Source of the DNA: a virus
Lineage: Duplodnaviria; Heunggongvirae; Uroviricota; Caudoviricetes
Direction: 5' to 3' (one strand)
Length of the DNA: 39,485 nucleotides
IMG/VR virus record: IMGVR_UViG_2802429241_000009
Below, one piece after another: positions 4,966-34,007 of this stretch. A program made the translations under genes and the position numbers. The number at the start of each line of letters is the position of its first letter. Within the stretch, counting starts at the first letter, position 1. The notes below the pieces were generated by a model, which saw only the letters and a list, made by a program, of their open reading frames with translations, was not told where the DNA came from and did not search any database.

Positions 4966-4980
4966 TTACCGTTGAGGTAA
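4966..4980. promoter_or_regulatory. Operator-like palindrome TTACC-N5-GGTAA (left operator region, downstream of PL-like promoter)
   Basis: Exact 5+5 inverted repeat; an extra TTACC half-site at 4953..4957; 62 bp from the site at 5028. Confidence 0.55.
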
Positions 4981-5008
4981 TGATTATGCGTATCTGGTTT
5001 GGTGTCAA
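4981..5008 (-). promoter_or_regulatory. PL-like promoter candidate for the leftward early operon
   Basis: Perfect -35 TTGACA on the minus strand (plus-strand 5003..5008); weak -10 candidates (TAATCA at 16-bp spacing or CATAAT at 14 bp); bracketed by operator sites. Confidence 0.4.
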
Positions 5009-5027
5009 TAGATATGAGTTAAAAAAA

Positions 5028-5042
5028 TTACCCATAAGGTAA
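5028..5042. promoter_or_regulatory. Operator-like palindrome TTACC-N5-GGTAA (left operator region, upstream of PL-like -35)
   Basis: Exact inverted repeat between the repressor terminator and the TTGACA -35. Confidence 0.55.
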
Positions 5043-5052
5043 TCACATAGGC

Positions 5053-5077
5053 AATAAAAAAGCCGCCAGAAGGCGGC
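5053..5077 (-). terminator. Intrinsic terminator downstream of the repressor gene
   Basis: Minus-strand hairpin GCCGCC-TTCT-GGCGGC followed by TTTTTTATT. Confidence 0.75.
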
Positions 5078-5099
5078 TTACTTACTGAAAAGTATGATT

Positions 5100-5684
5100 T
5101 TATTGTTTGTTTTTTTCGTTCTGGTTGATGACAAATTCAATGTAACTTTCGATCTTTGCTTTCTCGGTTTCGGGTAACAATGCGTAGCGCGAGCGATCAT
5201 AGTTGATGGTCGCAGGGTCGTGCGGGTGAATCAGTAATTCATAGCCGTGACGCCCGAATGCGGATGCAACATTCTCCAGGGTGGAAATGGAAACGCTGAC
5301 CTCATTGTTTAACAGGCGGCTGATTGTCACCTGGGCGACGCCGGATGCGCGGTGTAGTTTTCCCTGCGTTGAAAGGTCGCGGCTTTCGCTCATCCAGCGT
5401 TCCAGGTTGTGAGCCGCCAGCTGACCAATGTCGCTAGGGCCGACAGGCTGAAAACCTTCCTGAGAAAGCGAGCGATCGATATCAAGCCAGTTACGGGGTT
5501 TATTGGCGGCAGCTTCAATTTTTCGCGCAACCTGGTCGCCGATAACCTTCTTGCCAAGAGCCCAGCGGTTTACCAGATTTGCCTGAGTTCCAAGTTTTTC
5601 AGCCATCCGCGTCTGAACACCATTGAATTCACGGTCGATCAAGTCGTTGAGATTTTGCCTGCGGACGTCCTGGATACTTTTCAT
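5100..5684 (-). CDS. Prophage repressor candidate (CI-like position, two HTH-like segments, no visible autocleavage module)
   Basis: 194 aa, divergent from the Cro-like gene; followed by an intrinsic terminator; no Ala-Gly/Cys-Gly plus Ser-Lys peptidase module recognised by eye. Confidence 0.65.
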   Translation of the reverse strand: MKSIQDVRRQNLNDLIDREFNGVQTRMAEKLGTQANLVNRWALGKKVIGDQVARKIEAAANKPRNWLDIDRSLSQEGFQPVGPSDIGQLAAHNLERWMSESRDLSTQGKLHRASGVAQVTISRLLNNEVSVSISTLENVASAFGRHGYELLIHPHDPATINYDRSRYALLPETEKAKIESYIEFVINQNEKNKQ

Positions 5685-5739
5685 TTTCTGGAAAATCGCC
5701 TCATATATGAATCAGTAGATGATTCAATTTAAAGCAATA

Positions 5740-5754
5740 TTACCCAACAGGTAA
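5740..5754. promoter_or_regulatory. Operator-like palindrome TTACC-N5-GGTAA (immunity region site 1)
   Basis: Exact inverted repeat between the divergent repressor and Cro-like genes. Confidence 0.6.
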
Positions 5755-5756
5755 AT

Positions 5757-5771
5757 GCACCCCATAGGTAA
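5757..5771. promoter_or_regulatory. Operator-like variant GCACC-N5-GGTAA (immunity region site 2)
   Basis: One half-site degenerate; 17 bp centre-to-centre from site 1. Confidence 0.4.
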
Positions 5772-5784
5772 CTATCCTTGATTT

Positions 5785-5813
5785 TTGTTACCTTATGGGT
5801 GAATATTTATTAT
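5785..5813 (+). promoter_or_regulatory. PR-like sigma70 promoter candidate for the Cro-like gene
   Basis: -35 TTGTTA (5785..5790), 17-bp spacer, -10 TATTAT (5808..5813); operator variant overlaps the -35. Confidence 0.5.
5788..5802. promoter_or_regulatory. Operator-like variant TTACC-N5-GGTGA (immunity region site 3), overlapping the PR-like -35
   Basis: One mismatch in the right half; overlaps TTGTTA -35 and spacer. Confidence 0.45.
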
Positions 5814-5838
5814 CTGAAATAAATATCAGGCAATAGCT

Positions 5839-6069
5839 ATGAGCGATAACGGACATTTCGATTTCAAAAAGCACTGGCTTGCACTTACTCCGGATGAGCG
5901 TGAAGCCTTCGCACAGGAAGCCGGAACGACGAGTCACTATATCCAGACTCACTTAACAGGTAAGCGCAAAATGCCAGGTAAGGTATTGATGAATGGGCTT
6001 TTTAAAGCCTGTAAAACAAGACAATGGCTGCGCTCAAAAGCAGAACTGGCATACTTCTTCTACTCATGA
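5839..6069 (+). CDS. Cro-like small HTH regulator
   Basis: 76 aa, divergent from the repressor across the operator cluster; LALTPDEREAFAQEAGTTSHYIQTHLTGKRKMP HTH-like segment. Confidence 0.65.
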   Translation: MSDNGHFDFKKHWLALTPDEREAFAQEAGTTSHYIQTHLTGKRKMPGKVLMNGLFKACKTRQWLRSKAELAYFFYS

Positions 6070-6090
6070 TATCCAGCCACAACCATCTGT

Positions 6091-6118
6091 AGACCGCCAT
6101 CCGGCGGTCTTTTCATAT
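6091..6118 (+). terminator. Intrinsic terminator downstream of the Cro-like gene (tR1-like position)
   Basis: AGACCGCC-ATCC-GGCGGTCT followed by TTTTCATATCT. Confidence 0.6.
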
Positions 6119-6124
6119 CTATTC

Positions 6125-6139
6125 GCACCTTAAAGGTAA
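6125..6139. promoter_or_regulatory. Operator-like variant GCACC-N5-GGTAA downstream of the Cro terminator
   Basis: Same variant as at 5757; followed by ATATGGTT. Confidence 0.3.
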
Positions 6140-6217
6140 TAAAAAACCAAATATGGTTGATCAAATTTTCCAATTGTGCAAAATAGCCAATATCAATAAC
6201 AAAAAGGGGCGGAAAAA

Positions 6218-6430
6218 TTGAAGATAGTAACCAGAATGGAGGCCGCAAAAGCCGGGTTAAATCGCTATTTCACAGGAAAGCGGTGCCGTCACGGCCATCT
6301 CTCTGAAAGGTATGTTCTGAACGGAACATGTGTTGAATGTGCAATGAATAGCGCCAACCGCCATCGTAATGAATTTGCTTGTGCACTAAAGAGTGCAAGA
6401 GGGGAAACCTATGGCAAGCAGCTGGATTAA
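6218..6430 (+). CDS. Small zinc-finger-like protein (putative early regulator)
   Basis: C-x-H-x-H ... C-x2-C spacing (CRHGH...CVEC); TTG start at 6218 with GGGG SD, or ATG at 6236. Confidence 0.45.
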   Translation: MKIVTRMEAAKAGLNRYFTGKRCRHGHLSERYVLNGTCVECAMNSANRHRNEFACALKSARGETYGKQLD

Positions 6431-7235
6431 GGTTGAAGTTATCACTCCTGATAAACCTGAAATTTTTCAGATAGCAGAAATTCTGGGTATTGATCCAGAT
6501 GCTGTTCTTGGAAAGCTGGTTCGTATATGGGCATGGGCTGACCAGCAAACAATAGACGGTAACGCTGGCAGCGTTACAAAAGGAGTACTTGATAGACTCG
6601 CTTTTATTACAGGATTTGCTGACGCCCTCATTAGCGTCGGATGGCTTGCTTATCATGACGGCAAACTAATCCTTCCAAACTTTGAGCGACATAATGGAGA
6701 ATCATCGAAAAAACGTGCACTTACGAATAGAAGAGTGGCAGAGCATCGAAAACGAGTAACGCAAAAAGTAACGCCAACAGCGTTACAAAAGGAGTTACCA
6801 GAGGAAGAGGAAGATATATATAAAACCCCACACATAGCGCACGTGCGCGATGGTGCTCCGACCAGTGAAGCGAACGGTATGCCGTTGCAGGTGGCTGAAC
6901 CTGAATTTCTGGATGGCCTGAGTGAACCCATCGGGAAATTTCCGATGACCGATGGCTGGCATCCGTCGCCGGATTTTCGACGGCGTGCTGCGCTGTGGGG
7001 AACGGCCCTGCCGGAACCGGAATTTACACCTGCTGAACTTGCTGCATTCCGGGATTACTGGATGGCTGAGGGCAAAGTGTTCACGCAGGTTCAGTGGGAA
7101 CAAAAATTCGCCAGGCACGTAAATCATATCAGGGGAAAATCAAAAAACGCCGGGAAAAGCGATGAGCTTGACTGGAATAACACTGACTGGATAGAAGGGG
7201 TGTGGGATGAAATCAACTCCAGAACTTCTCAATGA
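6411..7235 (+). CDS. Replication initiator / replisome organizer (lambda O-like position)
   Basis: 275 aa immediately upstream of the P-like gene; palindromic iteron-like repeats and an AT-rich tract lie inside the gene; start at ATG 6411 (GTG 6393 alternative). Confidence 0.65.
   Translation: MASSWIKVEVITPDKPEIFQIAEILGIDPDAVLGKLVRIWAWADQQTIDGNAGSVTKGVLDRLAFITGFADALISVGWLAYHDGKLILPNFERHNGESSKKRALTNRRVAEHRKRVTQKVTPTALQKELPEEEEDIYKTPHIAHVRDGAPTSEANGMPLQVAEPEFLDGLSEPIGKFPMTDGWHPSPDFRRRAALWGTALPEPEFTPAELAAFRDYWMAEGKVFTQVQWEQKFARHVNHIRGKSKNAGKSDELDWNNTDWIEGVWDEINSRTSQ
6559..6588. repeat. Iteron-like element 1 inside the replication initiator gene: GTAACGC-N5-GCGTTAC plus AAAAGGAGTAC
   Basis: Perfect 7-N5-7 palindrome; recurs about 209 bp downstream in a different reading frame. 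Confidence 0.55.
6768..6797. repeat. Iteron-like element 2: GTAACGC-N5-GCGTTAC plus AAAAGGAGTTAC, with an extra GTAACGC at 6756 and an AT-rich tract at 6811..6825
   Basis: Same palindrome and 3' extension as element 1 but in another codon frame, so conserved at DNA level. Confidence 0.55.
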
Positions 7236-7983
7236 GTACGATCGCTTACGTGAGCATGGTGTTGCTGTGCATGAAGAGCGGCGTGACAGCAATGGCAAAA
7301 AGGAGCAGGTTGCTAGAATTTTCAATGAACTATTTGTCCAGTTACAGGCTGCATTTCCTGCAAGCGTTTCGACCATAAGGGAGCAGAACAAACTTAATGA
7401 ATTCCGTAAGCAATGGATGCTTGCCTTTCTGGAGAATGGGATCACAACAATGGAACAGGTTAACGCTGGTATGCGCCACGCCCGCGCCAGTGAATCTCCG
7501 TTCTGGCCGTCGCCTGGGCAATTCATCAAGTGGTGTAAAGACAGCAAGATGGTTCTTGGCGTCACCATTGACGATGTGATGGCGGAGTTTCACCGGTACA
7601 GCAAGGAAAAAAGTTTATATCCAGGTGGTCCCGAAAGATTCCCGTGGCGGCATCCGGTTATGTACTGGGTCGTATGTGATACCCGCCGTGCAATGTATCA
7701 GCGCCAGCTTAGCGAGATTGAGGTTGAGAAACACGCGCGCAGGCTGCTCGATGATTGGGCGAAAAAGGTGGCTTCCGGACAGCAGATACCCGATCCGGTG
7801 ATCAGCATACAGGCAAAGCCAGAGCCCATGAGTACACCTCCGGACACAGGGAGAGGCGTTTACCATCCACCAGGGCGAAGTTTCGGGTGCATGCCTAACG
7901 CCGCCACCCTTGGGGGAATAACACCGGCGCAGTGGCTGATGGAGGAATACAGGCGGGGAAAGGCGGCAGGATTTATCAAGTAA
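7207..7983 (+). CDS. Lambda P-like replication protein (helicase loader)
   Basis: NGITTMEQVNAGMR and FPAS...QW segments match lambda P as recalled; overlaps the end of the upstream replication gene. Confidence 0.8.
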   Translation: MKSTPELLNEYDRLREHGVAVHEERRDSNGKKEQVARIFNELFVQLQAAFPASVSTIREQNKLNEFRKQWMLAFLENGITTMEQVNAGMRHARASESPFWPSPGQFIKWCKDSKMVLGVTIDDVMAEFHRYSKEKSLYPGGPERFPWRHPVMYWVVCDTRRAMYQRQLSEIEVEKHARRLLDDWAKKVASGQQIPDPVISIQAKPEPMSTPPDTGRGVYHPPGRSFGCMPNAATLGGITPAQWLMEEYRRGKAAGFIK

Positions 7984-7988
7984 TACCA

Positions 7989-8008
7989 GCGCGATAGCGC
8001 ATTTTTTT
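7989..8008 (+). terminator. Weak terminator-like hairpin after the P-like gene
   Basis: 4-bp GC stem (GCGC-GATA-GCGC) followed by a 7-T run. Confidence 0.35.
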
Positions 8009-8020
8009 ACGCCTCAATAA

Positions 8021-8035
8021 TTACCTGCCAGGTAA
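8021..8035. promoter_or_regulatory. Operator-like palindrome TTACC-N5-GGTAA (upstream member of a pair)
   Basis: Exact; 62 bp from the site at 8083, the same spacing as in the left operator region. Confidence 0.55.
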
Positions 8036-8054
8036 TAAAATATTCTAAACTCTA

Positions 8055-8083
8055 TTGATTTCGTGTCTTATGTGGTTTTTAAT
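8055..8083 (+). promoter_or_regulatory. Sigma70-like promoter candidate upstream of the gene at 8101
   Basis: -35 TTGATT, 17-bp spacer containing TTATGTGGTT, -10 TTTAAT; bracketed by operator sites 62 bp apart. Confidence 0.4.
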
Positions 8084-8097
8084 TACCTTAGAGGTAA
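8083..8097. promoter_or_regulatory. Operator-like palindrome TTACC-N5-GGTAA (downstream member, ends 4 nt before the ATG at 8101)
   Basis: Exact; overlaps the candidate -10 TTTAAT. Confidence 0.55.
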
Positions 8098-8100
8098 ATC

Positions 8101-8445
8101 ATGAGAAAACAGATACAGGCTCTTGGTCGACTCAAAACAGGCCAGATGAACAAAACAGAATCTGCGTATTGCCAGCACCTTGAGCAGCGTAAACGTGCAG
8201 GGGAAATCGCCTGGTATCGATTCGAGGGTATCAAGCTGCGGTTAGCTGACAACACGTTCTATACGCCCGATTTTGCTGTGATGCTCGCCACCGGAGAGAT
8301 GGAACTGCACGAAGTGAAAGGTTTCTGGACCGACGACGCCAGGGTGAAAACCAAAGTCGCCGCAGATCAGTATCCGTTCCGAATCATCGGGGTAACGGTT
8401 AAACCAAAGAAAGCAGGTGGTGGCTGGAACGTCGAAGAGTTCTGA
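8101..8445 (+). CDS. Small PD-(D/E)XK-motif nuclease-like protein (possible Holliday-junction resolvase type)
   Basis: 114 aa; TPDFAV ... ELHEVKG resembles a D...E.K nuclease motif; starts 4 nt after an exact operator palindrome. Confidence 0.45.
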   Translation: MRKQIQALGRLKTGQMNKTESAYCQHLEQRKRAGEIAWYRFEGIKLRLADNTFYTPDFAVMLATGEMELHEVKGFWTDDARVKTKVAADQYPFRIIGVTVKPKKAGGGWNVEEF

Positions 8446-8506
8446 ATCGACGATCTTTTTAGTTATCAATGTAATCAATAAGTTATGTGGATAAGCGAGG
8501 GTAAAG

Positions 8507-8986
8507 ATGGAAAGTAATATCAAAGGGTTAGTTTCCGCCGGGCATGAGATGGCTTCGGAACTGAAAGCAGAATGTGGTGCCGTTGATATGCGCAGTGTGG
8601 CAAAGCTGATCAGCGATTTGGCAACGCAACTGGAAGTGCAACTGGTGCGTGCTAATGCGCTGGCAGCGGAGAATGCGGGGCTGAAGGCTGCGCACCCTCA
8701 ACCATTCGGACATGAGATGATGAAGGCTCTTGATGCGTATGAGAAGCATCAGGATGAAGTGCCAGAGACTGGAATGCTCAATGCATTTTTCATCTTGCGC
8801 GACAGCATCCGTGTTGACACCCCAGCCACCGATGCTTTCCTGACTGAAATTGAACGCAAAGCAATCCGAAAGTTCATTAACAGCATTGAACACATCCTGC
8901 GTGACAAGCTGTCTCCGTATGACACCGAAGAGATGCTTGAGGCTATGCGTATTTTTCTGGAAGAACAGGGAGGTGAGCAAAAATGA
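8507..8986 (+). CDS. Hypothetical protein (159 aa)
   Basis: ORF with GAGGGT SD; no recognisable domain. Confidence 0.5.
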   Translation: MESNIKGLVSAGHEMASELKAECGAVDMRSVAKLISDLATQLEVQLVRANALAAENAGLKAAHPQPFGHEMMKALDAYEKHQDEVPETGMLNAFFILRDSIRVDTPATDAFLTEIERKAIRKFINSIEHILRDKLSPYDTEEMLEAMRIFLEEQGGEQK

Positions 8987-9972: not shown

Positions 9973-9973
9973 G

Positions 9974-10165: not shown

Positions 10166-10166
10166 C

Positions 10167-10703: not shown

Positions 10704-10977
10704 CCTGCAACTTGCCGTCAAAGGTGAATACTTCGATGCCATGATTCGCGGGGAGAAAACGGAAGAGTATCGCTTGTGTAATGACTACTGGAATAAGCGA
10801 ATTATGTTCCGGGAGTATGACCGCCTGATTATCACAAAGGGATATCCGAAGCGCGACGACTTCAGTCGCAGAATTGACGTCCCGTATAACGGATATGAAA
10901 TAAAAACAATCACACATCCACACTTCGGTGATAAACCGGTAAAGGTATACGCGATAAAGGTAAATATTGATGGCTAA
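10696..10977 (+). CDS. Small ASCH/PUA-like domain protein
   Basis: 93 aa; GTG start after GGAGG; family assignment from recollection only. Confidence 0.45.
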   Translation: MANLQLAVKGEYFDAMIRGEKTEEYRLCNDYWNKRIMFREYDRLIITKGYPKRDDFSRRIDVPYNGYEIKTITHPHFGDKPVKVYAIKVNIDG

Positions 10978-11308
10978 ATCAGCAGCAGAGCGCAAAGCCG
11001 CTCAGAGAGCCAGACAAGCTGCATCTGGTGTGCGTAAGCTGGAAATTGTGCTTGATGCTCAGGAAATTGAAATGCTGGAGCGTAACTGTGCTACGCGTCG
11101 CCCCGGGCGTGCGCCTTACGAATTTGGTGAGTATATAGCGTTACTGATCCGCCAGGATGATGCACGCGTGCACGGGCGTATAAAATCGATCAGCAGAAAA
11201 CGTTGCGGTAAGTGCGGCGAGAGAGTTCCAGTTAATTCATGCCCGTGTAATGGTGACTCGCAATGCTGGGTGACTAAAGGCTGGCATGAAACGAAATTAA
11301 TAGTGTGA
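10970..11308 (+). CDS. Putative DNA-binding regulator: N-terminal ribbon-helix-helix-like segment plus C-terminal Cys cluster; candidate late-gene regulator
   Basis: RKLEIVLDAQEIEMLER resembles an RHH strand-helix; C-terminal C-x2-C-x8-C-x-C-x5-C; last gene before the terminator and terminase genes. Confidence 0.45.
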   Translation: MAKSAAERKAAQRARQAASGVRKLEIVLDAQEIEMLERNCATRRPGRAPYEFGEYIALLIRQDDARVHGRIKSISRKRCGKCGERVPVNSCPCNGDSQCWVTKGWHETKLIV

Positions 11309-11357
11309 CATGTTACGAGTAGATTATGCATGATGAATTTGATGGGTTTTGAATACT

Positions 11358-11384
11358 GCCGCCAACTATGGCGGCTTTATTTTG
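11358..11384 (+). terminator. Intrinsic terminator immediately upstream of the terminase small subunit gene
   Basis: GCCGCC-AACTAT-GGCGGC followed by TTTATTTTG. Confidence 0.65.
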
Positions 11385-11387
11385 CAT

Positions 11388-11419
11388 GGTACTATTACCA
11401 CAACGGTAACTATTACCAC
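11388..11419 (+). repeat. Tandem direct repeat GGTA(A)CTATTACCAC x2 between the terminator and the terminase small subunit start
   Basis: 14/15-bp units at 11388..11401 and 11405..11419; each contains the TTACC half-site, and the second forms GGTAA-CTA-TTACC. Confidence 0.5.
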
Positions 11420-11426
11420 GGTGGTT

Positions 11427-12023
11427 ATGATGCCTGCTGAACCTAAAACCTATAAACGCAAATCAACGCAATTTAAGCCGCTCACAGCAATGCAGGAGGC
11501 TTATTGCCAGTCATACATCAAAACGCCTGAAAACCAGACTCAGGCAGCGATTAACGCAGGATTCTCCCCAAATACAGCGGCAGTTAAAGCCAGTGTCATG
11601 ATGCGCGATGAACGCATTCAAAAACGGATTGCCGAGTTGATGGAGGAGCGCAACAAACGAATGCGCGTCAGTGCTGATTACGTTCTCATGCGCCTGGTGG
11701 AGATCGACCAGATGGACGTGATCGATATCCTCAACGACGATGGGAGCCTTAAACCAATCCGTGAGTGGCCGAAAATCTGGCGCACTACGCTTAGTGGCTT
11801 TGATCTGTCATCGACCATCATGAACATGAACGAGGATTCGATAGAGACAATCCTCAAAAAAATTAAATGGCCTGACAAGGTGAAGAACCTCGAACTGATT
11901 GGTAAGCACGTCGACGTCAACGCATTCAAAGAACGCCTGGATGTTAATGTGAATGTGACAATTGCTGATCGCATAGCGGCAGCCAGGAAGCGACTCAAAG
12001 AACGTCAGGATGGTAATCAGTGA
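11427..12023 (+). CDS. Terminase small subunit
   Basis: Immediately upstream of and overlapping the large terminase gene; start at ATG-ATG after GGTGG (upstream TTG start would cross a terminator hairpin). Confidence 0.65.
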   Translation: MMPAEPKTYKRKSTQFKPLTAMQEAYCQSYIKTPENQTQAAINAGFSPNTAAVKASVMMRDERIQKRIAELMEERNKRMRVSADYVLMRLVEIDQMDVIDILNDDGSLKPIREWPKIWRTTLSGFDLSSTIMNMNEDSIETILKKIKWPDKVKNLELIGKHVDVNAFKERLDVNVNVTIADRIAAARKRLKERQDGNQ

Positions 12024-13811: not shown

Positions 13812-13888
13812 TGGCGTGGCATGCAGGATTCGAACCTGCGACCAACCGCTTAGAAGGCGGTTGCTCTGTCCGACTGAGCTAATGCCAC
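13812..13888 (-). tRNA. tRNA-Arg (anticodon UCU), phage-borne
   Basis: 77 nt with full cloverleaf: 7-bp acceptor GTGGCAT/ATGCCAC, D-stem GCTC/GAGC, anticodon stem ACCGC/GCGGT with loop CTTCTAA, T-arm GCAGG-TTCGAAT-CCTGC, encoded CCA; close to E. coli argU as recalled. Confidence 0.85.
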
Positions 13889-14225: not shown

Positions 14226-14315
14226 TAATTCGTGCGTTAAATGTCAACCATCTACGATAAATAAATCATATGTGGTTAAATTGGTAATAATTTAATTGCG
14301 TACGGAGTCATTGAT

Positions 14316-19417: not shown

Positions 19418-20022
19418 TGGCCTCTGTAGTAGAGATCTGCAATCGTGCGCTGTCCAATATTGGCAATAGCCGCAGCATTAACAGCCTGACGGAAGCCAGC
19501 AAGGAAGCTGGGGAATGTTCGCTGCACTTTGAGGCCTGCCGTGATGCTGTTCTTTCTGATTTTGACTGGAACTTTGCTACCAAACGCGTGGCGCTTGCAG
19601 ATACGAGCAATCCACCGCCTGACTGGGAATATGCGTACCAGTACCCGTCCGATTGTCTGCGCATTACTGAAATTATGCTTCTTGGTGTACGCAATCCAAC
19701 AGCAGCAATGCGCGTTCAGTACGAAGTTGGTGCAGACACCAACGGAACAGGAAAGTTGATCTACACAGACCAGCCGCAGGCATGGCTCAAGTATGTATCT
19801 CGCGTTTCAGATGTGAACATGTTTGATGCCATTTTTATGGAGGCGTTGGCCTGGCGTCTTGCGGCAGCTATTAACATGGCGCTGACTGGGAATGCAGACC
19901 TCGGTACGTTTGCCCTCAATATGTACAATCGCGTGATTCTTAGTGCTGGCTCGCATAGCCAGAATGAATCACAGGAACCACAGCCACCGGTTGACGAGTT
20001 TACCATTGCGAGGTTGTCCTGA
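19417..20022 (+). CDS. Tail tubular protein A-like (adaptor), T7 gp11-like position
   Basis: 201 aa; N-terminal pattern loosely resembles T7 gp11 as recalled; gene order. Confidence 0.5.
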   Translation: MASVVEICNRALSNIGNSRSINSLTEASKEAGECSLHFEACRDAVLSDFDWNFATKRVALADTSNPPPDWEYAYQYPSDCLRITEIMLLGVRNPTAAMRVQYEVGADTNGTGKLIYTDQPQAWLKYVSRVSDVNMFDAIFMEALAWRLAAAINMALTGNADLGTFALNMYNRVILSAGSHSQNESQEPQPPVDEFTIARLS

Positions 20023-27814: not shown

Positions 27815-27819
27815 ATTAA

Positions 27820-30294
27820 ATGAGACAGGAATGTATACAAGCGGTCCAGCAGGCGGCGCAGCGCACGTTAACGGCGCGAGAAATACAGAACATTGAAGAC
27901 CGCATTTATCGCAATATGCGCTCCATTGCTCGTGATGACCCTATGTCGTGGCGACAACTTTCCGAGTCAGAGCGGCTGTATCGTGCAGCACAATTGGCAT
28001 CTGAAGAATTACAGCGAGAAGCGGCATTAAAGAAACGTCGTGTGGCTCTCACTATAGCCGCACGTCAGAGATTGGATAAATTTATCAATAGCTATCAAGG
28101 GGCTGATGGGAAACTTGGCGCTCTTAACCGTACTATTGCTTTTAATGCAGACGGTAAATCGAATTTCCTCTCTGTTGAGTCCAGAACAAAAGCCACTCGT
28201 GATTATGCATTGAGTCAATTGCAGGAGGCATTCGAAGCAGTTGATCCTCGCTTTTTTGGCCTGTTTGAAGATGAAGCGGGCGTGCGTGACCTGGTATATG
28301 AAATGCGAGGGCAAAATACTGGCAATGCTAAAGCAAGAAAAGGTGCTAAGGCGTGGAGAGAAGTGACAGATCTACTCCGCCGCCGGTTTAATGATGCTGG
28401 TGGGGACATTGGCTATCTCGAAAACTGGGGGATCCCTCAACATCATTCTATGGAAAAGGTTGGGGCGGTATCAAAGGATAAGTGGGTTAGCGATGTTATA
28501 GGTAAGCTGGATCGCAAATATTATATCCGAGCCGATGGACAACTGATGAATGATGCCGAGTTGTCTGCATTTCTTGGAGAGGCTTATAACACGATCGCTA
28601 CTGGTGGGCTGAATAAGCTTACTGATACCGGAATGCGAATTTCCGGCGCACGTGCTAACCGTGGTAATGCATCACGACAGATACATTTCAAAGATGCAGA
28701 TTCCTATCTCCAATATCAACAACTTTATGGCGATCGCTCTCTATGGGAAATCATGGTCGGTCACCTGGAAGGGATCAGTAAAGATATTGCTCTGGTGGAA
28801 ACATATGGCCCAAACCCCGATCATGTTTTCCGTTCCCTTCTTGATCAGGTGAAGGCTGAAACGGCAACAGCTAACCCGAGTAAAACCGGTAGCGTTGAGC
28901 GGCTGGCGAACAAAACAGAGAACCTGTACAACTTTATTTCCGGAAAGACACAGCCTGTAGCTAATCCGCACATCGCGCGATGGTCTGACAATATCCGCAA
29001 CTGGCTGGTTGCCAGCAGACTCGGATCCGCGTTGCTGTCATCGTTCTCTGATCTTGGAACCATGTATCTGTCTGCGAAGGTTACCAACCTTCCAATGAAC
29101 CAGTTATTCCGCAACCAGCTTGAAGCTATGGACCCAACGAACCGTACTGAGCTTGCGCGGGCGCGCCGAGCTGGTCTGGCGATGGAATCTCTACTTGGCA
29201 GCGTTAACCGCTGGGCGATGGATAATATGGGGCCGTCTGTGTCTCGTTGGGCGGCAACGGCGGTAATGCGTGCCAGTGGGCTTACAGCATGGTCAGATGC
29301 GCACAAGCGCGCCTATGGCGTAACTATGATGGGAAGCCTGGGAGAAGTAGTGTCACGGACACCAGACCTTCGTAGCCTCGATGACTCTGATTTTCGTATC
29401 CTGAAAAGCAAAGGGATTACTGACACAGACTGGAGCGTATGGAAGCTGGCGCAACAGGAGGACTGGGGGAACGGTAATAATACGATGCTGACACCGGAAA
29501 GCATTATGCGTATCCCTGATTCAGCAGTTAAACATCTTGGTGAGCCTGAACGTGTGAAATTTGAGGCAATGCGTAAACTGCTCGGTGCCGTAACTGAAGA
29601 AGTTGATATGGCTGTTATTACACCGGGCGCACGTGAACAGATGTTCGTAGGGTCTGGTCTTCAGCGTGGAACATGGAAAGGTGAATTAACGAGAAGTGTT
29701 TTCCTGTTTAAATCGTTCCCTATCTCGGTAGTTATGCGTCACTGGCATAGAGCTATGGGGATGCCGTCTGCTGGTGGGCGTGCGGCATATATAGCAACGT
29801 TTTTAGCAAGCACAACCATGCTTGGTGCTCTTTCCATGCAGATTACTGATCTTATTAATGGGAGAAATCCAAAAGAAATGACCGGTGACAACATGGTTAA
29901 ATTCTGGATAAATGCATTTTTAAAAGGTGGTGGGGCAGGGTTGTATGGTGATTTTCTTTTCTCTGACCACACCAGGTACGGGAGCGGCGCACTAGCGTCG
30001 ATGCTTGGCCCGGTAGCTGGTCTGGTTGATGACGTAGTGAAGATTGCTCAGGGCATACCGTTAAATGCTGTGGAAGGGAAGAATGAGCAGACTGGTGGTG
30101 ATCTGGTTAAGCTTGGGAAAGGTTTGATGCCTGGTGCGAATCTCTGGTACTTGAAGGCGGCTCTCGATCACATGATCTTTAACCAGATGCAGGAGTATTT
30201 TTCACCAGGCTATTTGCGTAAAATGGAGCAACGTTCGAAGAAAGAGTTTAATCAGACATACTGGTGGCGACCTCAGGATGTCACTCCGCAATAA
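27820..30294 (+). CDS. Internal virion / ejection protein (T7 gp16-like position)
   Basis: 824 aa; GAGAGG SD. Confidence 0.55.
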   Translation: MRQECIQAVQQAAQRTLTAREIQNIEDRIYRNMRSIARDDPMSWRQLSESERLYRAAQLASEELQREAALKKRRVALTIAARQRLDKFINSYQGADGKLGALNRTIAFNADGKSNFLSVESRTKATRDYALSQLQEAFEAVDPRFFGLFEDEAGVRDLVYEMRGQNTGNAKARKGAKAWREVTDLLRRRFNDAGGDIGYLENWGIPQHHSMEKVGAVSKDKWVSDVIGKLDRKYYIRADGQLMNDAELSAFLGEAYNTIATGGLNKLTDTGMRISGARANRGNASRQIHFKDADSYLQYQQLYGDRSLWEIMVGHLEGISKDIALVETYGPNPDHVFRSLLDQVKAETATANPSKTGSVERLANKTENLYNFISGKTQPVANPHIARWSDNIRNWLVASRLGSALLSSFSDLGTMYLSAKVTNLPMNQLFRNQLEAMDPTNRTELARARRAGLAMESLLGSVNRWAMDNMGPSVSRWAATAVMRASGLTAWSDAHKRAYGVTMMGSLGEVVSRTPDLRSLDDSDFRILKSKGITDTDWSVWKLAQQEDWGNGNNTMLTPESIMRIPDSAVKHLGEPERVKFEAMRKLLGAVTEEVDMAVITPGAREQMFVGSGLQRGTWKGELTRSVFLFKSFPISVVMRHWHRAMGMPSAGGRAAYIATFLASTTMLGALSMQITDLINGRNPKEMTGDNMVKFWINAFLKGGGAGLYGDFLFSDHTRYGSGALASMLGPVAGLVDDVVKIAQGIPLNAVEGKNEQTGGDLVKLGKGLMPGANLWYLKAALDHMIFNQMQEYFSPGYLRKMEQRSKKEFNQTYWWRPQDVTPQ

Positions 30295-30303
30295 GGAAGT
30301 GTT

Positions 30304-30477
30304 GTGTTTTTAATTATTTTGAGTGTGATAATTTCTGGTGGGTTGTTATTTATTGACCGCTACAAATATTTTCTTAACCCTCAGACTCAAGCTATTTGCT
30401 GGTTCATCTTTGTTGTGCAGGGAATAGTTCTTGTTGCAAGCCTTATTGAGGGGAGGCCTCTGATTTTTACTGGGTAA
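30304..30477 (+). CDS. Small hydrophobic membrane protein (57 aa, two predicted TM segments)
   Basis: Not in the ORF track; GTG start after AAGGAAG; VFLIILSVIISGGLLFI and ICWFIFVVQGIVLVASLI hydrophobic stretches. Confidence 0.3.
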   Translation: MFLIILSVIISGGLLFIDRYKYFLNPQTQAICWFIFVVQGIVLVASLIEGRPLIFTG

Positions 30478-30489
30478 ATAGGTGACTAC

Positions 30490-30786
30490 ATGCAAGCGAT
30501 AGGATTCATTGTTTATATCGTCGTTGGCCTTTTTCAGTTGGCAGCAATTATGGCTGGGCTTGAATCAAGGTGGGGATTGCACTGGATAATTGCAGCCCCC
30601 ATTGCTTTCATCGTGAGCTATATTCCATTTGTTGGAGCGATTGTTGGTATGGTTGGTGCTGTGGATGTATGGCGGTGGGAGTGGTGGCAGGCTGGCCTTC
30701 TCTTCTTTGGTGGGATCATCTTTGCTATTGTCTGCGGTGGAATGTCATCATTTTTCGAACGGCTATCATTCAGAAAAGGAACGTGA
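30490..30786 (+). CDS. Small integral membrane protein (98 aa, about 3 TM segments)
   Basis: Strongly hydrophobic ORF; GGTGA SD; followed by a hairpin plus T-run terminator. Confidence 0.5.
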   Translation: MQAIGFIVYIVVGLFQLAAIMAGLESRWGLHWIIAAPIAFIVSYIPFVGAIVGMVGAVDVWRWEWWQAGLLFFGGIIFAIVCGGMSSFFERLSFRKGT

Positions 30787-30794
30787 CATGTCAC

Positions 30795-30819
30795 AGGCCG
30801 CTTTCGCGGCCTTGTTTTT
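30795..30819 (+). terminator. Intrinsic terminator after the 98-aa membrane protein gene
   Basis: AGGCCGC-TTTC-GCGGCCT followed by TGTTTTTA; lies between convergent genes. Confidence 0.65.
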
Positions 30820-30979
30820 AACGAATGCCACCGCCACCCGGGCGGGAATCCGCAGAACGCCCACCGCAGCGGGAGCCGTCAGCGGCAGTATCGCTGTCGT
30901 GCTGACAACGACCGGCAAAAGCCTGAGTTGAAGCTACCAGAGACAACAAAACGAACAGTGCAGCAAATGCTTTTTTCAT
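30818..30979 (-). CDS. Signal-peptide microprotein (53 aa; mature peptide about 31 aa with 2 Cys)
   Basis: MKKAFAALFVLLSLVASTQAFA looks like a Sec signal peptide with an AFA cleavage site; convergent with the upstream + gene; competing + ORF 30788..30931 crosses the terminator. Confidence 0.35.
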   Translation of the reverse strand: MKKAFAALFVLLSLVASTQAFAGRCQHDSDTAADGSRCGGRSADSRPGGGGIR

Positions 30980-31051
30980 TGTGAAATTTCCATCCATAAG
31001 CCACCTCAATGTGGCGTCAATGAGTGTAGCACTGACTTTTGTTTCGTCCAC

Positions 31052-31074
31052 AAAAAAAGCCCGCAGCGCTGGCT
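31052..31074 (-). terminator. Intrinsic terminator at the 3' end of the 179-aa membrane protein gene
   Basis: Minus-strand imperfect hairpin overlapping the stop codon followed by TTTTTTTG. Confidence 0.5.
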
Positions 31075-31613
31075 TACCAAAACTTGTACCACGGGGATTT
31101 ATCCTTCAATGGGCAATCCTTCCATCGTGTGGCCAACCATTCATATTCTTTAAAATATGTGTTTATGTTTTCTTTTTCTCTAATGGCTTGTATAAGAGGT
31201 AGCGCAATCTGATAGTTATTTACAACGGAGCTGTAAAATACTTCCTTAATCATGGTCTCATCATAAGTTTTCCGCTTCACGCTCACAGCCATGCGTTCGT
31301 AGAAACCTAGACAGTAAATTATTTCTCTCTTCTCTGTCTTTTCTTCATCCGTAAGATCAGCCTGCCCATTGCTTGGATACATATAAGAGCGGAATGATTT
31401 GTTCGATTCGTGAATGCGGCGCATAGTAGATAGGCCTTTCTTATAATCTACATCAAACCTGCTTTCACCAAGGAATACTGAAGTGTGTACTTTTCTCGCT
31501 GTATTTACATTATAAATAATAGTAGCGATAGCTATGAACAAGCCAAGCGAAACCGCGACTGCACTTACGATTTGAGCCACAGCCATGGCAAATTGCATTT
31601 CTTCACTTAACAC
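31074..31613 (-). CDS. Membrane-anchored hypothetical protein (179 aa), AT-rich gene; candidate superinfection-exclusion or defence protein
   Basis: GTG start after GGAGA; N-terminal TM (AMAVAQIVSAVAVSLGLFIAIATIIY); visibly lower GC than neighbours; hairpin/U-run structures at both ends. Confidence 0.55.
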   Translation of the reverse strand: MLSEEMQFAMAVAQIVSAVAVSLGLFIAIATIIYNVNTARKVHTSVFLGESRFDVDYKKGLSTMRRIHESNKSFRSYMYPSNGQADLTDEEKTEKREIIYCLGFYERMAVSVKRKTYDETMIKEVFYSSVVNNYQIALPLIQAIREKENINTYFKEYEWLATRWKDCPLKDKSPWYKFW

Positions 31614-31630
31614 AAACTGTCTCCAGACAT

Positions 31631-31653
31631 GAAAACGGGGCCTAATGGCCCCG
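31631..31653 (-). terminator. Hairpin plus short U-run between the antirepressor gene and the 179-aa gene (terminator or attenuator)
   Basis: Minus-strand CGGGGCC-ATTA-GGCCCCG followed by TTTTC, ending about 20 nt before the GTG start of the 179-aa gene. Confidence 0.45.
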
Positions 31654-31822
31654 TCATTAAACTATCCGAATGTTAAACGCCTTCGTACTCGTCAAATTTT
31701 CTCATGTGGGCTCCTCCTGTATCGGTGCATAATCGCTATGGATCACCCGTGAGGTAATAGTAAGCTATTCACCTGCAATCTGTACAGAATTATTTAAAGG
31801 CACATCCCTGTGCCGCCGCTCG

Positions 31823-32509
31823 TCAGAAGAACCCTGCCTTGTCGTTGATGTACTCCGCGTGCGTCTGGATATCACGCAGGCATTTGCTCACACCGACGAT
31901 GTAGCAGAACATGGTGGTCAACTCCGCCGCCGCGCCCGATACGTCGTGCCCGTCTTCCTGTAACTGGTTCAGCAGATTCATCAGCAGTGAGTTCTCCGTC
32001 AGGCCGAGAACACCAGACGGCGAGTGAATCAGGCTGCGGTAGCCTGGCTTCAGCGGGGCGCTGTAGGTTTTGTTCTCTATCTTCATCGCCTGCATCACTG
32101 CTGACGCCGTGGCGTTGGCTACCTGGTCGGCAACCATCTTTATGCGTTCTTCCTGCGGGAGCGAGTTTTTAATGTAACTTCCGGTGCGGCGGATCTGAGG
32201 AAGAACCTCACCTGTAACCCATTTACGAAAGCGGTAGGGGATAGTGCCTGGTGTCACCGCATCGCGGCAGCGGAGGATCAGTGTGTAGAGGCCTGACTCG
32301 CTGATAATATTGGTTTCGCCTTGACGACCTAAGTTAAATTTAGCCCTTTCATCATCATCAAGAGATTTGATTGACATGGTGGGGTTTGTCAGTTGAAGAG
32401 CTTTAATAACGTCTTTGGCAACAAACCAAGGATTTCCATCAATAACAATGGCTCGAATGGTTGCTTCTGATTCAAAATGAAAAACAGATGGGGTTACGTT
32501 AGCAGTCAT
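31823..32509 (-). CDS. BRO-N domain antirepressor-like protein
   Basis: N-terminal SVFHFESEATIRAIVIDGNPWFVAKDVIKALQL resembles the BRO-N signature; AGGTG SD before the ATG; long structured leader upstream. Confidence 0.7.
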   Translation of the reverse strand: MTANVTPSVFHFESEATIRAIVIDGNPWFVAKDVIKALQLTNPTMSIKSLDDDERAKFNLGRQGETNIISESGLYTLILRCRDAVTPGTIPYRFRKWVTGEVLPQIRRTGSYIKNSLPQEERIKMVADQVANATASAVMQAMKIENKTYSAPLKPGYRSLIHSPSGVLGLTENSLLMNLLNQLQEDGHDVSGAAAELTTMFCYIVGVSKCLRDIQTHAEYINDKAGFF

Positions 32510-32667
32510 GGCAATCACCTTTTAGTATGGTTAATCACCACCTGAGGTGCAAATCTCGTTGGTGGTGAGACGTACAGGGTTTGCACTACCGGCTAAAAGG
32601 ACCCGGCGCACCTTTCGGTGCCCCTGCACGTCCCACCATAATTCTGGCATGACTGTGCTATACGCAT

Positions 32668-32690
32668 AAAAAAACCACGTCTGGCGTGGT
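32668..32690 (-). terminator. Intrinsic terminator inside the antirepressor upstream region (attenuator or 3' end of a short RNA)
   Basis: Minus-strand ACCACG-CCAGA-CGTGGT followed by TTTTTTTAT. Confidence 0.6.
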
Positions 32691-32750
32691 ATGCGCCTTT
32701 TAGTAATCCGGGGTGCAAATCCCGGCACTGGATTTTGCCAGTGCTCGATT

Positions 32751-32779
32751 ACTATGGCACAAGAGGAGTGCGATGTAAA
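32751..32779 (-). promoter_or_regulatory. Candidate leftward promoter of a short structured RNA / antirepressor leader
   Basis: Minus-strand -35 TTTACA (plus 32774..32779), 17-bp spacer, -10 CATAGT (plus 32751..32756); predicted start near 32744. Confidence 0.3.
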
Positions 32780-32780
32780 T

Positions 32781-32795
32781 TTACCGCAAAGGTAA
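32781..32795. promoter_or_regulatory. Operator-like palindrome TTACC-N5-GGTAA adjacent to a candidate leftward promoter of the antirepressor leader
   Basis: Exact; abuts the candidate -35 (TTTACA on the minus strand). Confidence 0.5.
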
Positions 32796-32873
32796 TGATA
32801 AACGCTGATAAATATAAAAATCAACCGTATTTGGTTGATTGCGTTTAACGCTTGATCACCTGAAAGCAAGATA

Positions 32874-32888
32874 TTACCTTTAAGGTAA
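32874..32888. promoter_or_regulatory. Operator-like palindrome TTACC-N5-GGTAA just upstream of the zinc-ribbon protein gene
   Basis: Exact; overlaps the alternative ATG at 32888. Confidence 0.5.
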
Positions 32889-32908
32889 TGTTATTGTGGG
32901 GAAAAGCA

Positions 32909-33637
32909 ATGGAAGTTTTCTGGATAGTTGTTGGTGTGGTTGCGGTGATTATTTACGTTATCAACCAGAACAAGACTAAGATCTCTGATCGTACGGTCGT
33001 TAATCATAACAAAACGATAAAGACCGAAGATGGGGAGATAACGATTAATCGTACACAGGTGATAGAACACACCTCTACTCAGTTTCAAAAAACTGGAGGT
33101 AATGCGCCTAATATTTCCGCACCTCCTGCTTATGATAGTGCGGTAATCCAGACATATTATAAACAGCAGGAGTTAGCAAAAGAGAGGCAACTGATTCAGC
33201 CAAAGCCGTTTACAGCTGAGCTTCCACCTGGAGTGTCAACGCGTCCGGCATATCATGGAAGATTCCCTGGTGATGACATATCGTCTCAGTCATCTAAAAA
33301 AGCACCTCAGGCAGTATCAGAGCCAGCAAGAATACCTTCTGTATCGCCGCCAAAAGAAGAATCAGCTAACAGAGTTTCAAGTGGTAGCAAGCAGTGCTTG
33401 CGATGCAGAATAAACCTTCCATATGAAAAATTCAGGAAATCGTCAAAAAATCCAGATGGATTGACTAAGTGGTGTGCAAGGTGTCTCGATGGCCCAAAGA
33501 ATACACGCCATATGAAGTGGTGCCCAATTTGTAATGTCCGCAGAAAACGAACCAGTTTTTACCCTAATAATCAAAATGCGGATGGCTTAATGGCATGGTG
33601 CAAAACGTGCTGGGACGAGCACAAAGCGAAACGATAG
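32909..33637 (+). CDS. Membrane-anchored protein with a tandem C-terminal zinc-ribbon-like repeat
   Basis: N-terminal TM (VFWIVVGVVAVIIYVI); Ser/Pro-rich linker; two repeats of C-x2-C-x(17-20)-DGL-x3-WC-x2-C; ATG at 32888 is an alternative start. Confidence 0.55.
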   Translation: MEVFWIVVGVVAVIIYVINQNKTKISDRTVVNHNKTIKTEDGEITINRTQVIEHTSTQFQKTGGNAPNISAPPAYDSAVIQTYYKQQELAKERQLIQPKPFTAELPPGVSTRPAYHGRFPGDDISSQSSKKAPQAVSEPARIPSVSPPKEESANRVSSGSKQCLRCRINLPYEKFRKSSKNPDGLTKWCARCLDGPKNTRHMKWCPICNVRRKRTSFYPNNQNADGLMAWCKTCWDEHKAKR

Positions 33638-33660
33638 GCCGCTCTTGCGGCCTTTTCTTT
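33637..33660 (+). terminator. Intrinsic terminator after the zinc-ribbon protein gene, between convergent genes
   Basis: GGCCGC-TCTT-GCGGCC followed by TTTTCTTT. Confidence 0.65.
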
Positions 33661-33916
33661 ATGTGGTTTGTTTTCGTAGTTGTTCGGCACAATAGTCGAG
33701 ATGTGTTTGCAGATCCTGCATAGACATCTGTGAGCTGGTGACGTAGTTAATCAGTGCAGTCAGTTCGGCAAGTGGGCCATCGACATTAAATCCATCCTTA
33801 TCGAGATCCCGGAGTAATTTCATCAAGTGCGATCCCTCCACCAGTGATCTGACGCCTCCCGGCGTGTGAATCCTTTCGGTAAATCCGTCTTCCAGTGGAT
33901 AGTGATACCGCTGCAT
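33659..33916 (-). CDS. Small antirepressor-domain protein (85 aa), putatively LexA-controlled
   Basis: Homologous by eye to the C-terminal about 80 aa of the BRO-N protein at 31823..32509 (shared IH.P.GV, LM.LL, DG..V.G..AELT, D.QTH..Y); GGAGAAG SD; LexA-box-like site 21 nt upstream. Confidence 0.55.
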   Translation of the reverse strand: MQRYHYPLEDGFTERIHTPGGVRSLVEGSHLMKLLRDLDKDGFNVDGPLAELTALINYVTSSQMSMQDLQTHLDYCAEQLRKQTT

Positions 33917-33935
33917 CTTATCTTCTCCATGTAAT

Positions 33936-33955
33936 AACTGTATATTTATACAGTA
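33936..33955. promoter_or_regulatory. LexA box (SOS box) candidate
   Basis: AACTGTATATTTATACAGTA: CTGT-N8-ACAG with an all-A/T spacer, 18 of 20 matches to TACTGTATATATATACAGTA as recalled; 21 nt upstream of the ATG of the minus-strand gene 33659..33916. Confidence 0.7.
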
Positions 33956-33992
33956 TCAAATAATTTGTTTGCTATCCAGCACGTTTTGCAAA

Positions 33993-34007
33993 TTACCTGA
34001 AAGGTAA
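33993..34007. promoter_or_regulatory. Operator-like palindrome TTACC-N5-GGTAA in the divergent region between the small antirepressor-domain gene and the tailspike
   Basis: Exact inverted repeat. Confidence 0.5.

Follow-up and report, generated by a model that had tools for sequence, protein, structure and literature searches.

Which protein reads the short palindrome TTACC-N5-GGTAA that recurs along this prophage, and what does its binding control? The window, by which we mean the whole 39,485-nucleotide stretch of DNA that was analysed, is a Uetakevirus prophage of the epsilon15/phiV10 type, about 98% identical to ZX5 and phiV10. An earlier note had counted nine exact copies of the palindrome, confined to intergenic regions; the palindrome stands, but the count is ten (starting at 4966, 5028, 5740, 8021, 8083, 11395, 14211, 32781, 32874 and 33993), the copy at 11395, before the small terminase gene (terS), having been overlooked. 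None of 100 dinucleotide-preserving shuffles contains an exact copy, GGTAA follows TTACC at a spacing of 5 only when spacings from 0 to 15 are examined, and in an unbiased count the motif ranks first among all 5-N-5 inverted repeats of the window. Allowing at most one mismatch gives 13 sites where 0.66 are expected, the additional ones being at 5788, 11413 and 31743. Of three variants singled out previously, one has a single mismatch (5788) and two have 2 mismatches each (5757 and 6125), and a site is present at both of the latter positions in all aligned relatives; indeed, all five degenerate copies lie at positions that relatives have kept. The copies in the window are all perfect or near-perfect palindromes with the extended consensus A-TTACC-t-n-W-n-a-GGTAA-T, and their intergenic placement is borne out by ZX5, an annotated and near-identical phage in which 10 of 10 equivalent copies fall within the intergenic 8.6% of the genome.

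The palindrome is an already known, ordinary feature of the genus, because the same sites are annotated in its type phage, epsilon15. The RefSeq record of epsilon15 (NC_004775.2) carries seven 'protein_bind: repressor' features, all reading (A)TTACC-N5-GGTAAT, and the operator ATTACC-N5-GGTAAT of the window, with its ten exact cores, is identical to them. This annotation, at orthologous positions, matches the earlier proposal that the operators of a single regulator extend from the immunity region into late and accessory promoters. In each of ZX5, phiV10, epsilon15 and Tyrion the motif is the commonest 5-N-5 inverted repeat, and these four phages, SPC32H and two Klebsiella phages hold 8-11 exact copies in orthologous places. 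Positional orthology across the genus extends to the OL pair, the OR triple, the post-replication pair, and the sites at terS, the portal operon and Ant/tailspike. Full-text searching of the open literature gave no paper stating the operator consensus.

We conclude that the palindrome is very probably the operator of the prophage's own Rep, a tetrameric repressor of the epsilon15 gp38/SPC32H Rep family. Sites, statistics, geometry, conservation and homologies come from the present analysis, while the repressor-site annotation of epsilon15, the function of the ZX5 repressor and the binding of palindromes by SPC32H Rep tetramers are the work of others. The two proteins to be considered flank the OR region:

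5100..5684, minus strand: Rep, 194-aa non-cleavable repressor and presumed binder (PDB 5D50_A, Pfam, ZX5/phiV10 identity)
5839..6069, plus strand: Cro-like HTH protein, 76 aa, a possible second binder (phrog_35, transcriptional repressor; 76% identical to epsilon15 gp39)

Rep matches SPC32H Rep (PDB 5D50_A) over residues 1-190 with an E-value of 4e-42, and is 100% identical to the repressors of ZX5 (ORF21) and phiV10. A Pfam search returned only HTH families, namely HTH_3 and an N-terminal YdaS/Cro-like HTH, and found no S24 peptidase domain. SPC32H Rep is summarized in PMC9638917 as a tetramer that binds palindromic DNA. Overexpression of ZX5 ORF21 lowers endolysin and holin transcripts by >99.9% and abolishes free phage (PMC9782041). 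By tblastn, a Rep homologue is found at the same position, beside OL and OR, in 36 phage records. We had expected a different repressor class to go with a different palindrome, and this proved wrong: among the four Rep classes compared (100%, 75-78%, 45% and 42% identity) the palindrome is invariant, with the Cro-like protein conserved even better than Rep, so that covariation favours neither protein as binder. The N-terminal domain is the better conserved part of Rep, with an invariant NLVNRW block, in keeping with an operator shared unchanged by all Rep classes. Of the three binders put forward in the earlier note, the 194-aa repressor is the most likely and has much the strongest support; some sharing of sites by the Cro-like protein is possible, as in lambda, and nothing was found to support the Cys-cluster protein.

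The sites around rep are as follows, operators being listed here and below without strand:

4966..4980: exact operator, OL proximal, adjoining the -10 of PL, the early promoter that runs leftward
5028..5042: exact operator, OL distal, 62 bp away from its partner and 19 nt ahead of the -35
5740..5754: exact operator, OR-a, the closest of the three to rep
5757..5771: OR-b operator, GCACC...GGTAA with two mismatches, 17 bp on from OR-a
5788..5802: OR-c operator, TTACC...GGTGA with one mismatch, spanning the -35/spacer of PR, the rightward promoter
6125..6139: degenerate operator, GCACC...GGTAA, past the cro terminator (6091-6110), its position kept in 5 genomes

PL consists of TTGACA (5008-5003), a 17-nt spacer and AATCAT (ending at 4980), scoring 10/12, and the distal OL operator comes after the terminator of the repressor gene (5060-5079). 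The promoter scan places PR at TTGTTA (5785), 17 nt, and TATTAT ending at 5813, with the conserved TTGATT at 5778 as an alternative -35. The triple site between rep and the cro-like gene, recognized previously as an OR-like arrangement, is present and conserved across the genus, OR-b being exact in epsilon15 and the Klebsiella phage; these three sites would constitute a bistable switch. A promoter-like TTGATC-16-CAAAAT lies downstream of the operator at 6125.

A second pair of operators surrounds the post-replication promoter:

8021..8035: distal operator of the post-replication promoter, exact
8083..8097: proximal operator, exact; its first T is also the last base of the -10 TTTAAT (8078-8083)

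This promoter was read by eye, the scan tool having missed it because its -10 has no A at position 2, and the operator at 8083 includes the Shine-Dalgarno GAGG of the gene starting at 8101. The claim that the pairs 4966/5028 and 8021/8083 are both 62 bp apart and bracket promoters is correct, and the arrangement is conserved across the genus: in both, the proximal operator directly adjoins the -10 hexamer, and 19 nt separate the distal one from the -35 downstream of it. In IMG/VR a spacing of 62/63 bp predominates over the range scanned (47-77 bp), and 12 diverged clusters, whose spacers are <75% identical, have retained exactly 62 bp. IMG/VR loci with the palindrome and no Rep homologue were set aside as unrelated arrays (18-bp tandem iterons and switch regions of low-GC phages). 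At PL, at the post-replication promoter and at the isrK/C4/BRO-N promoter described below, the last T of the -10 is at the same time the first base of the operator, and a fourth such promoter is probably found at 31757. Rep bound there would thus cover the -10/+1 region. The N-terminal HTH domain pairs would bind the two half-sites, which are one helical turn apart from centre to centre. The second operator of PL and of the post-replication promoter, 62 bp upstream, sits beside an A/T run in the position of an UP element, and, since 62 bp is about 5.9 turns, the paired operators lie on the same face of the helix. The distal operator probably adds cooperativity, most simply with one Rep tetramer on both sites, and probably also blocks upstream contacts of RNA polymerase; a single tetramer would then span the 47-bp gap between the operators.

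The strongest competitor to Rep is the 76-aa Cro-like protein, which might recognize the palindrome instead of or together with Rep, much as lambda Cro and CI do. It is an HTH protein that PHROG annotates as a transcriptional repressor, its gene diverges from rep across the triple site, and, at 58-84% identity across the genus, it too would fit an invariant operator. However, the epsilon15 record gives the sites to the repressor, the blocking of late and antirepressor promoters suits a lysogenic repressor and not a lytic-phase protein, and the paired 62-bp geometry suits a tetramer with two pairs of DNA-binding domains. As an account of the palindrome we consider the Cro-like protein improbable; its sharing of the OR sites is quite possible, and exclusive binding by it is unlikely.

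Further single operators and their companions stand before terS and the late portal and tailspike units; sites had been reported at the portal block and in the gap between a LexA-box gene and the tailspike:

11395..11409: operator before the small terminase gene, exact, past a terminator (11358-11375); the epsilon15 orthologue, 12-27, is an annotated repressor site
11413..11427: second site upstream of terS, TTACC...GGTTA, 1 mismatch, 18 bp further and ending at the start codon
14211..14225: operator before the portal/head operon, exact; epsilon15 orthologue 2931-2947, an annotated repressor site
14267..14289, plus strand: conserved block CATATGTGGTT-N5-GGTAATA, a candidate late-promoter core with half operator
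33993..34007: operator in the divergent Ant/tailspike region, exact; epsilon15 orthologue 19895-19911, an annotated repressor site
34037..34059, plus strand: CATATGTGGTT-N5-GGTAATA again, this copy ahead of the tailspike gene

These reported sites, together with those in the antirepressor region, are all confirmed and conserved across the genus. Promoter scans found no sigma-70 consensus promoter overlapping the terS, portal or tailspike operators. The TGGTT-N5-GGTAA 15-mer within the block at 14267 begins 62 bp past the portal operator, and that within the block at 34037 begins 50 bp past the Ant/tailspike operator. As a motif of its own ATGTGGTT is borderline (4 copies versus 1.4 expected, with 7 of 100 shuffles reaching 4), and only the longer conserved blocks are significant.

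Since almost every operon has a site ahead of it, late operons without a sigma-70 consensus promoter among them, one might suppose that the palindrome is a promoter or activator element for a phage activator, such as a PerC-like protein or the gp49-like regulator (10967..11308), the latter annotated by PHROG as a transcriptional regulator. Yet PL, whose -10/+1 is overlapped by a site, is close to consensus (10/12) and needs no activator, three sites stand in tandem in the rep/cro gap, epsilon15 has these sites annotated as the repressor's, and repressor overexpression shuts off late genes (PMC9782041), so that we regard activation as very unlikely. Still less credence, indeed next to none, can be given to the reading, for which no support was found, that a host transcription factor binds here or that enterobacterial intergenic DNA carries the palindrome generally: counting in shuffled and host DNA had been suggested as a check, and the exact palindrome is as absent from 50 kb of adjoining E. 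coli chromosome, where four one-mismatch matches are unclustered, as it is from the shuffles, against 10 exact copies in about 38 kb of prophage.

Repression by Rep appears to extend to the genes that would undo it:

31743..31757: TCACC...GGTAA, with one mismatch here and none in ZX5, ahead of accessory genes that run leftward
31823..32518: BRO-N antirepressor (BRO-N-fused Ant-domain protein)
32558-32643, minus strand: C4 RNA (Rfam RF01695, 77.8 bits)
32781..32795: proximal operator, exact, abutting the -10 of the leftward promoter TTGATT-18-TATCAT (32824-32795)
32874..32888: operator, exact, 93 bp from that at 32781 and just upstream of a 242/249-aa membrane/zinc-ribbon accessory gene
33659..33916, minus strand: Ant, 85-aa SPC32H-type antirepressor (PDB 5D50_E, E 3e-47)

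What had been called the LexA-box gene is Ant, and the LexA box itself, CTGTATATTTATACAG, is at 33938-33953, 22 bp upstream of the ant start codon. The leftward promoter at 32824-32795 drives isrK, C4 RNA and the BRO-N antirepressor, giving an order like that of P1 immI: operator for the main repressor, C4 antisense RNA, antirepressor gene. A reading of 32531..32869 as a protein-coding gene was rejected, the region matching the C4 and isrK RNAs; it is these RNAs, and no protein, that are encoded between the two sites near 32.8 kb. The membrane/zinc-ribbon accessory gene is absent from ZX5. Induction would proceed without cleavage of Rep: inactivation of LexA would release Ant, which would strip Rep from all sites together, and the second antirepressor, with its BRO-N-fused Ant domain, lies behind both a Rep operator and the C4/isrK antisense RNA module. 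With single sites before terS, the portal operon, tailspike/Ant and the accessory gene, nearly every transcription unit would be under direct Rep control, and most of the units so controlled start right after a terminator.

A more detailed joint picture is possible, and we offer it tentatively. One Rep tetramer would hold each 62-bp pair through two trans-paired DNA-binding domain pairs, wrapping the -35/UP region in a very small loop; the portal and tailspike units would be repressed by a full operator plus a half operator in a core that is not sigma-70-like (CATATGTGGTT-N5-GGTAATA), at a fixed 62 or 50 bp; and the circuit would be 'flat', one repressor gating every unit. If so, mutual immunity would hold between phages of E. 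coli, Salmonella, Klebsiella and Enterobacter, because the operator is the same among Rep classes that are 42-78% identical. The 62-bp geometry and the half-operator late blocks provide concrete, testable predictions for promoter shut-off by a tetrameric repressor with trans-paired DNA-binding domains.

The closest known systems are of the same genus. Epsilon15 (gp38; NC_004775.2 / AY150271) has the same palindrome, ATTACC-N5-GGTAAT, and the same 62-bp pairs, with sites at OL, at the post-replication promoter, upstream of terS and of the portal operon, and in the gap between the small antirepressor and tail fibre genes. Its repressor, however, is 42% identical to Rep overall and 54% in the N-terminal domain; it is without the BRO-N antirepressor module and carries two sites missing from the window, a third one at OL and one ahead of the lysis cassette. 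Its record annotates 7 of its 11 exact copies. The Rep-Ant antirepression system of SPC32H was reportedly described by Kim and Ryu in 2013 and Kim et al. in 2016 (PDB 5D4Z, 5D50). SPC32H has homologues of both proteins (E 4e-42 for Rep, 3e-47 for Ant), a LexA box ahead of ant and 10 exact palindromes at the same places, whereas the window adds the BRO-N-fused Ant-domain protein behind C4/isrK RNAs.

More distant systems share parts of the design. In P1, one repressor, C1, has operators over many operons, and in immI (c4 antisense RNA, icd, ant) an operator stands ahead of a C4 antisense RNA and antirepressor operon, as in the window with its 77.8-bit C4 match. P1 operators are asymmetric 17-bp sites, unlike the symmetric ones of the window, and C1 is not known to be related to Rep. 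L5 stoperators are orientation-dependent and act on elongation. In mycobacteriophages L5/L1 many copies of the gp71 operator or 'stoperator' are spread genome-wide in short intergenic gaps (PMC1934351), so that, as here, one repressor site is repeated through the genome between genes; L5 sites are asymmetric, whereas those of the window are palindromic and lie on promoters. Lambda CI/Cro shares with the window divergent rep and cro genes, three operators and an OL region governing a leftward recombination operon, but Rep has no S24 autocleavage domain, induction is by antirepressor, the operators reach late operons, and the cooperative pairs are 62 bp apart and not adjacent.

With motif, regulator family and induction mechanism already described for the genus, along with a crystal structure and public site annotation, there is little discovery value in the palindrome itself. 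Its use is in annotation: the operator map transfers directly to phiV10, ZX5 and TL-2011b and to several hundred prophages in the guaA/yfgH locus of E. coli, all without operator annotation, the lysis-attR junction being found in about 520 of 5,426 complete genomes.

The palindrome TTACC-N5-GGTAA occurs exactly ten times in the window (4966, 5028, 5740, 8021, 8083, 11395, 14211, 32781, 32874 and 33993); all nine copies counted in an earlier note made from the sequence are among these, and its total is corrected by the copy at 11395, which had been overlooked. No exact copy appeared in 100 dinucleotide-preserving shuffles, and when TTACC followed by GGTAA was sought at spacings of 0-15 only spacing 5 was found, with all ten copies. 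When every 5-N(0-12)-5 inverted repeat in the window is counted without bias, the palindrome ranks first, with 10 copies vs 5 for the runner-up, itself the same motif offset by one base. Allowing up to one mismatch gives 13 sites vs 0.66 expected, the one-mismatch sites lying at 5788, 11413 and 31743; of the half-site variants put forward earlier, 5788 has a single mismatch and 5757 and 6125 have two each. Pooling 48 sites leads to the consensus A-TTACC-t-n-W-n-a-GGTAA-T, with A or T as the central base at 92 of 96 symmetrised positions. The intergenic placement of the palindrome is borne out in the annotated phage ZX5, where all 10 equivalent copies fall within the intergenic 8.6% of the genome. 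A comparable density in host DNA, which would have counted against an operator set, was not seen, since the 50 kb of adjoining host chromosome contains no exact copy.

The window is a Uetakevirus prophage in integrated form and belongs to the phiV10/epsilon15 group; its early region shares ∼98% identity with phages ZX5, HEMP4 and TL-2011b. Its right end, from ∼38.2 kb (38200-39485), is E. coli chromosome with yfgH and yfgI, placing the prophage at the guaA-side attachment site. The same junction between lysis genes and host is present in ∼520 of 5,426 complete E. coli genomes. A tRNA-Arg gene (anticodon TCT; 13812-13888, minus strand) separates the terminase and portal operons, as it does in SPC32H, and is missing from the ZX5 and phiV10 annotations.

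The palindrome and its repressor system are already known. The RefSeq record of the type phage epsilon15 carries seven features labeled 'protein_bind: repressor (lysogeny)', all seven of which read (A)TTACC-N5-GGTAAT and correspond in place to sites in the window: three in the interval from the repressor gene to the leftward operon, one after the replication genes, one each in front of terS and the portal operon, and one in the gap separating the small antirepressor and tail fibre genes. The claim that the copies form one regulator's operator set is thereby supported, and the set agrees with the epsilon15/SPC32H Rep regulon on every testable point of membership. Exact copies number 11 in epsilon15, 10 each in SPC32H and ZX5, 9 in Tyrion and 8 in phiV10, with 9 in one Klebsiella phage and 10 in another, and the palindrome is the commonest 5-N-5 inverted repeat in each of ZX5, phiV10, epsilon15 and Tyrion. 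Sites for one repressor are spread genome-wide in the P1 C1 and mycobacteriophage L5 regulons as well, although the sites here differ in being symmetric and placed on promoters.

The protein that binds the palindrome is most likely the 194-aa repressor Rep (5100-5684, minus strand), an assignment in which we have high confidence. Rep matches the SPC32H repressor (PDB 5D50) over residues 1-190 with an E value of 4e-42, contains HTH domains, and is 100% identical to ZX5 ORF21, overexpression of which abolished free phage and lowered endolysin and holin transcripts by >99.9% in a study that named no operator (PMC9782041). In the passages of PMC9638917 that summarise Kim et al. 2016, SPC32H Rep is described as a tetramer on palindromic DNA whose DNA-binding pairs are drawn from different dimers, a single tetramer being enough for repression. 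Covariation across four Rep classes (100, 75-78, 45 and 42% identity) carried no signal on the binder because the operator is invariant in all of them. An unvarying operator does fit the pattern of conservation within Rep: between window and epsilon15 the N-terminal domain, which holds an invariant NLVNRW block, is 54% identical and the C-terminal domain 39%. The Cro-like protein (76 aa; 5839-6069, plus strand), 58-84% identical across the genus and 76% identical to its epsilon15 counterpart, may be a second binder of the same palindrome. The switch at OR and OL resembles that of lambda, from which it differs in that Rep is without an autocleavage domain; a domain search of Rep found no S24 peptidase.

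The elements of the early and leftward promoters are as follows.
5740, OR-a, exact palindrome between rep and the Cro-like gene
5757, OR-b, 17 bp beyond OR-a
5788, OR-c, spanning the -35/spacer of the rightward promoter PR
4966/5028, OL operators of the leftward early promoter PL, TTGACA-17-AATCAT
8021/8083, operators of the promoter after the replication genes, TTGATT-17-TTTAAT, read by eye
32781, operator of a leftward promoter, TTGATT-18-TATCAT

The three tandem sites described previously between the repressor and Cro-like genes are indeed there, all three positions being filled in 5/5 aligned genomes, as is the degenerate site 6125 after the cro terminator. At PL, which scores 10/12 against consensus, the first T of operator 4966 is the last T of the -10 hexamer when read on the transcribed strand; the -10 elements abutting operators 8083 and 32781 do so in the same way, and the site at 31757 probably shares this geometry. 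The two 62-bp pairs were said to bracket promoters, and promoters are located at both, at PL and after the replication genes. Each of these promoters has a second, distal operator, placed exactly 62 bp farther upstream and 19 nt ahead of the -35, with a terminator before it and an A/T run after it. In all genomes checked, both loci have this 62-bp spacing (63 bp in the Klebsiella phages). Among 196 IMG/VR pairs from a scan limited to spacings of 47-77 bp, 123 are at 62 bp and 21 at 63 bp, raw counts that overstate independence as many of the contigs are mutually related; the cluster count is fairer, and exactly 62 bp is kept in 12 of 12 clusters whose 47-nt spacers are <75% identical. A second palindromic element, AACCnnATnnGGTTGAT, has 3 matches vs 0.05 expected and is conserved in relatives. 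At 6145-6161 and 32820-32839 it takes in the -35 hexamers (TTGATY) of two promoters, the one that follows the cro terminator and the leftward one of the antirepressor.

At the operators of terS, the portal operon and the tailspike gene, promoter scans found no overlapping sigma-70 consensus promoter. At the portal (14267-14289) and tailspike (34037-34059) promoters, 5/5 diverged genomes share a block, CATATGTGGTT-N5-GGTAATA, that is unchanged at the former and has two variable bases at the latter; it occurs 2 times in the window vs 0 expected. It includes a perfect right half-site, GGTAAT, and its TGGTT-N5-GGTAA 15-mer begins at a fixed distance past the full operator, 62 bp at the portal promoter and 50 bp at that of the tailspike. 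The block may be a late-promoter core, perhaps also a weak proximal Rep site, and the core may be the target of an activator. Directly 3' of the gp49-like regulator gene (10967-11308, phrog_536), the stretch 11305-11427 contains a promoter-like GTGACA-18-CATGAT, a strong terminator (11358-11375) within ∼25 bp and then the terS operators, a layout that, with the regulator gene before it, recalls lambda Q/PR'/tR'.

The accessory region contains the following.
31823-32518, minus strand, BRO-N antirepressor
32558-32643, minus strand, C4 antisense RNA (Rfam, 77.8 bits)
32668-32744, minus strand, isrK Hfq-binding RNA (Rfam, 67.4 bits)
32888-33637, plus strand, membrane/zinc-ribbon accessory gene (242/249 aa, phrog_6762)
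33659-33916, minus strand, 85-aa antirepressor Ant
33938-33953, LexA box of ant, CTGTATATTTATACAG

The C4 and isrK matches lie directly upstream of the BRO-N gene, on the minus strand within the stretch 32531-32869 that had been read as a gene; the 112-aa ORF there is probably not one. The layout, with a Rep operator on its promoter, is like P1 immI, a P1 immI/Gifsy-1-like RNA control module within a Uetakevirus. The gene behind the LexA box encodes an 85-aa SPC32H-type Ant (5D50 chain E, E 3e-47), to which the C-terminal ∼80 residues (148-229) of the BRO-N protein show homology (40% identity, E 1e-15); both proteins match phrog_450. The BRO-N antirepressor is a fusion with an Ant domain, so that the prophage encodes two proteins containing this domain, each under a different control. 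The phrog_6762 gene, whose product has a membrane helix at the N terminus and, at the C terminus, two zinc ribbons similar to endonuclease VII or Lar, is missing from ZX5; its insertion includes a Rep operator of its own, 32874. CTGT-N8-ACAG occurs 4 times vs 0.55 expected, with the AT-rich LexA consensus core only at 33938; the others (13681, 18223 and 35532), in or near coding sequence, are probably chance matches.

In other phage groups, too, the palindrome seems to serve repeatedly as a target for proteins. Arrays of it are present at eight IMG/VR loci on unrelated viral contigs without a Rep or Cro homologue, examples being tandem iterons of 18 bp (TTACCGTTTTGGTAACCG) and low-GC switch regions in which the site falls between TTGACA and the -10.
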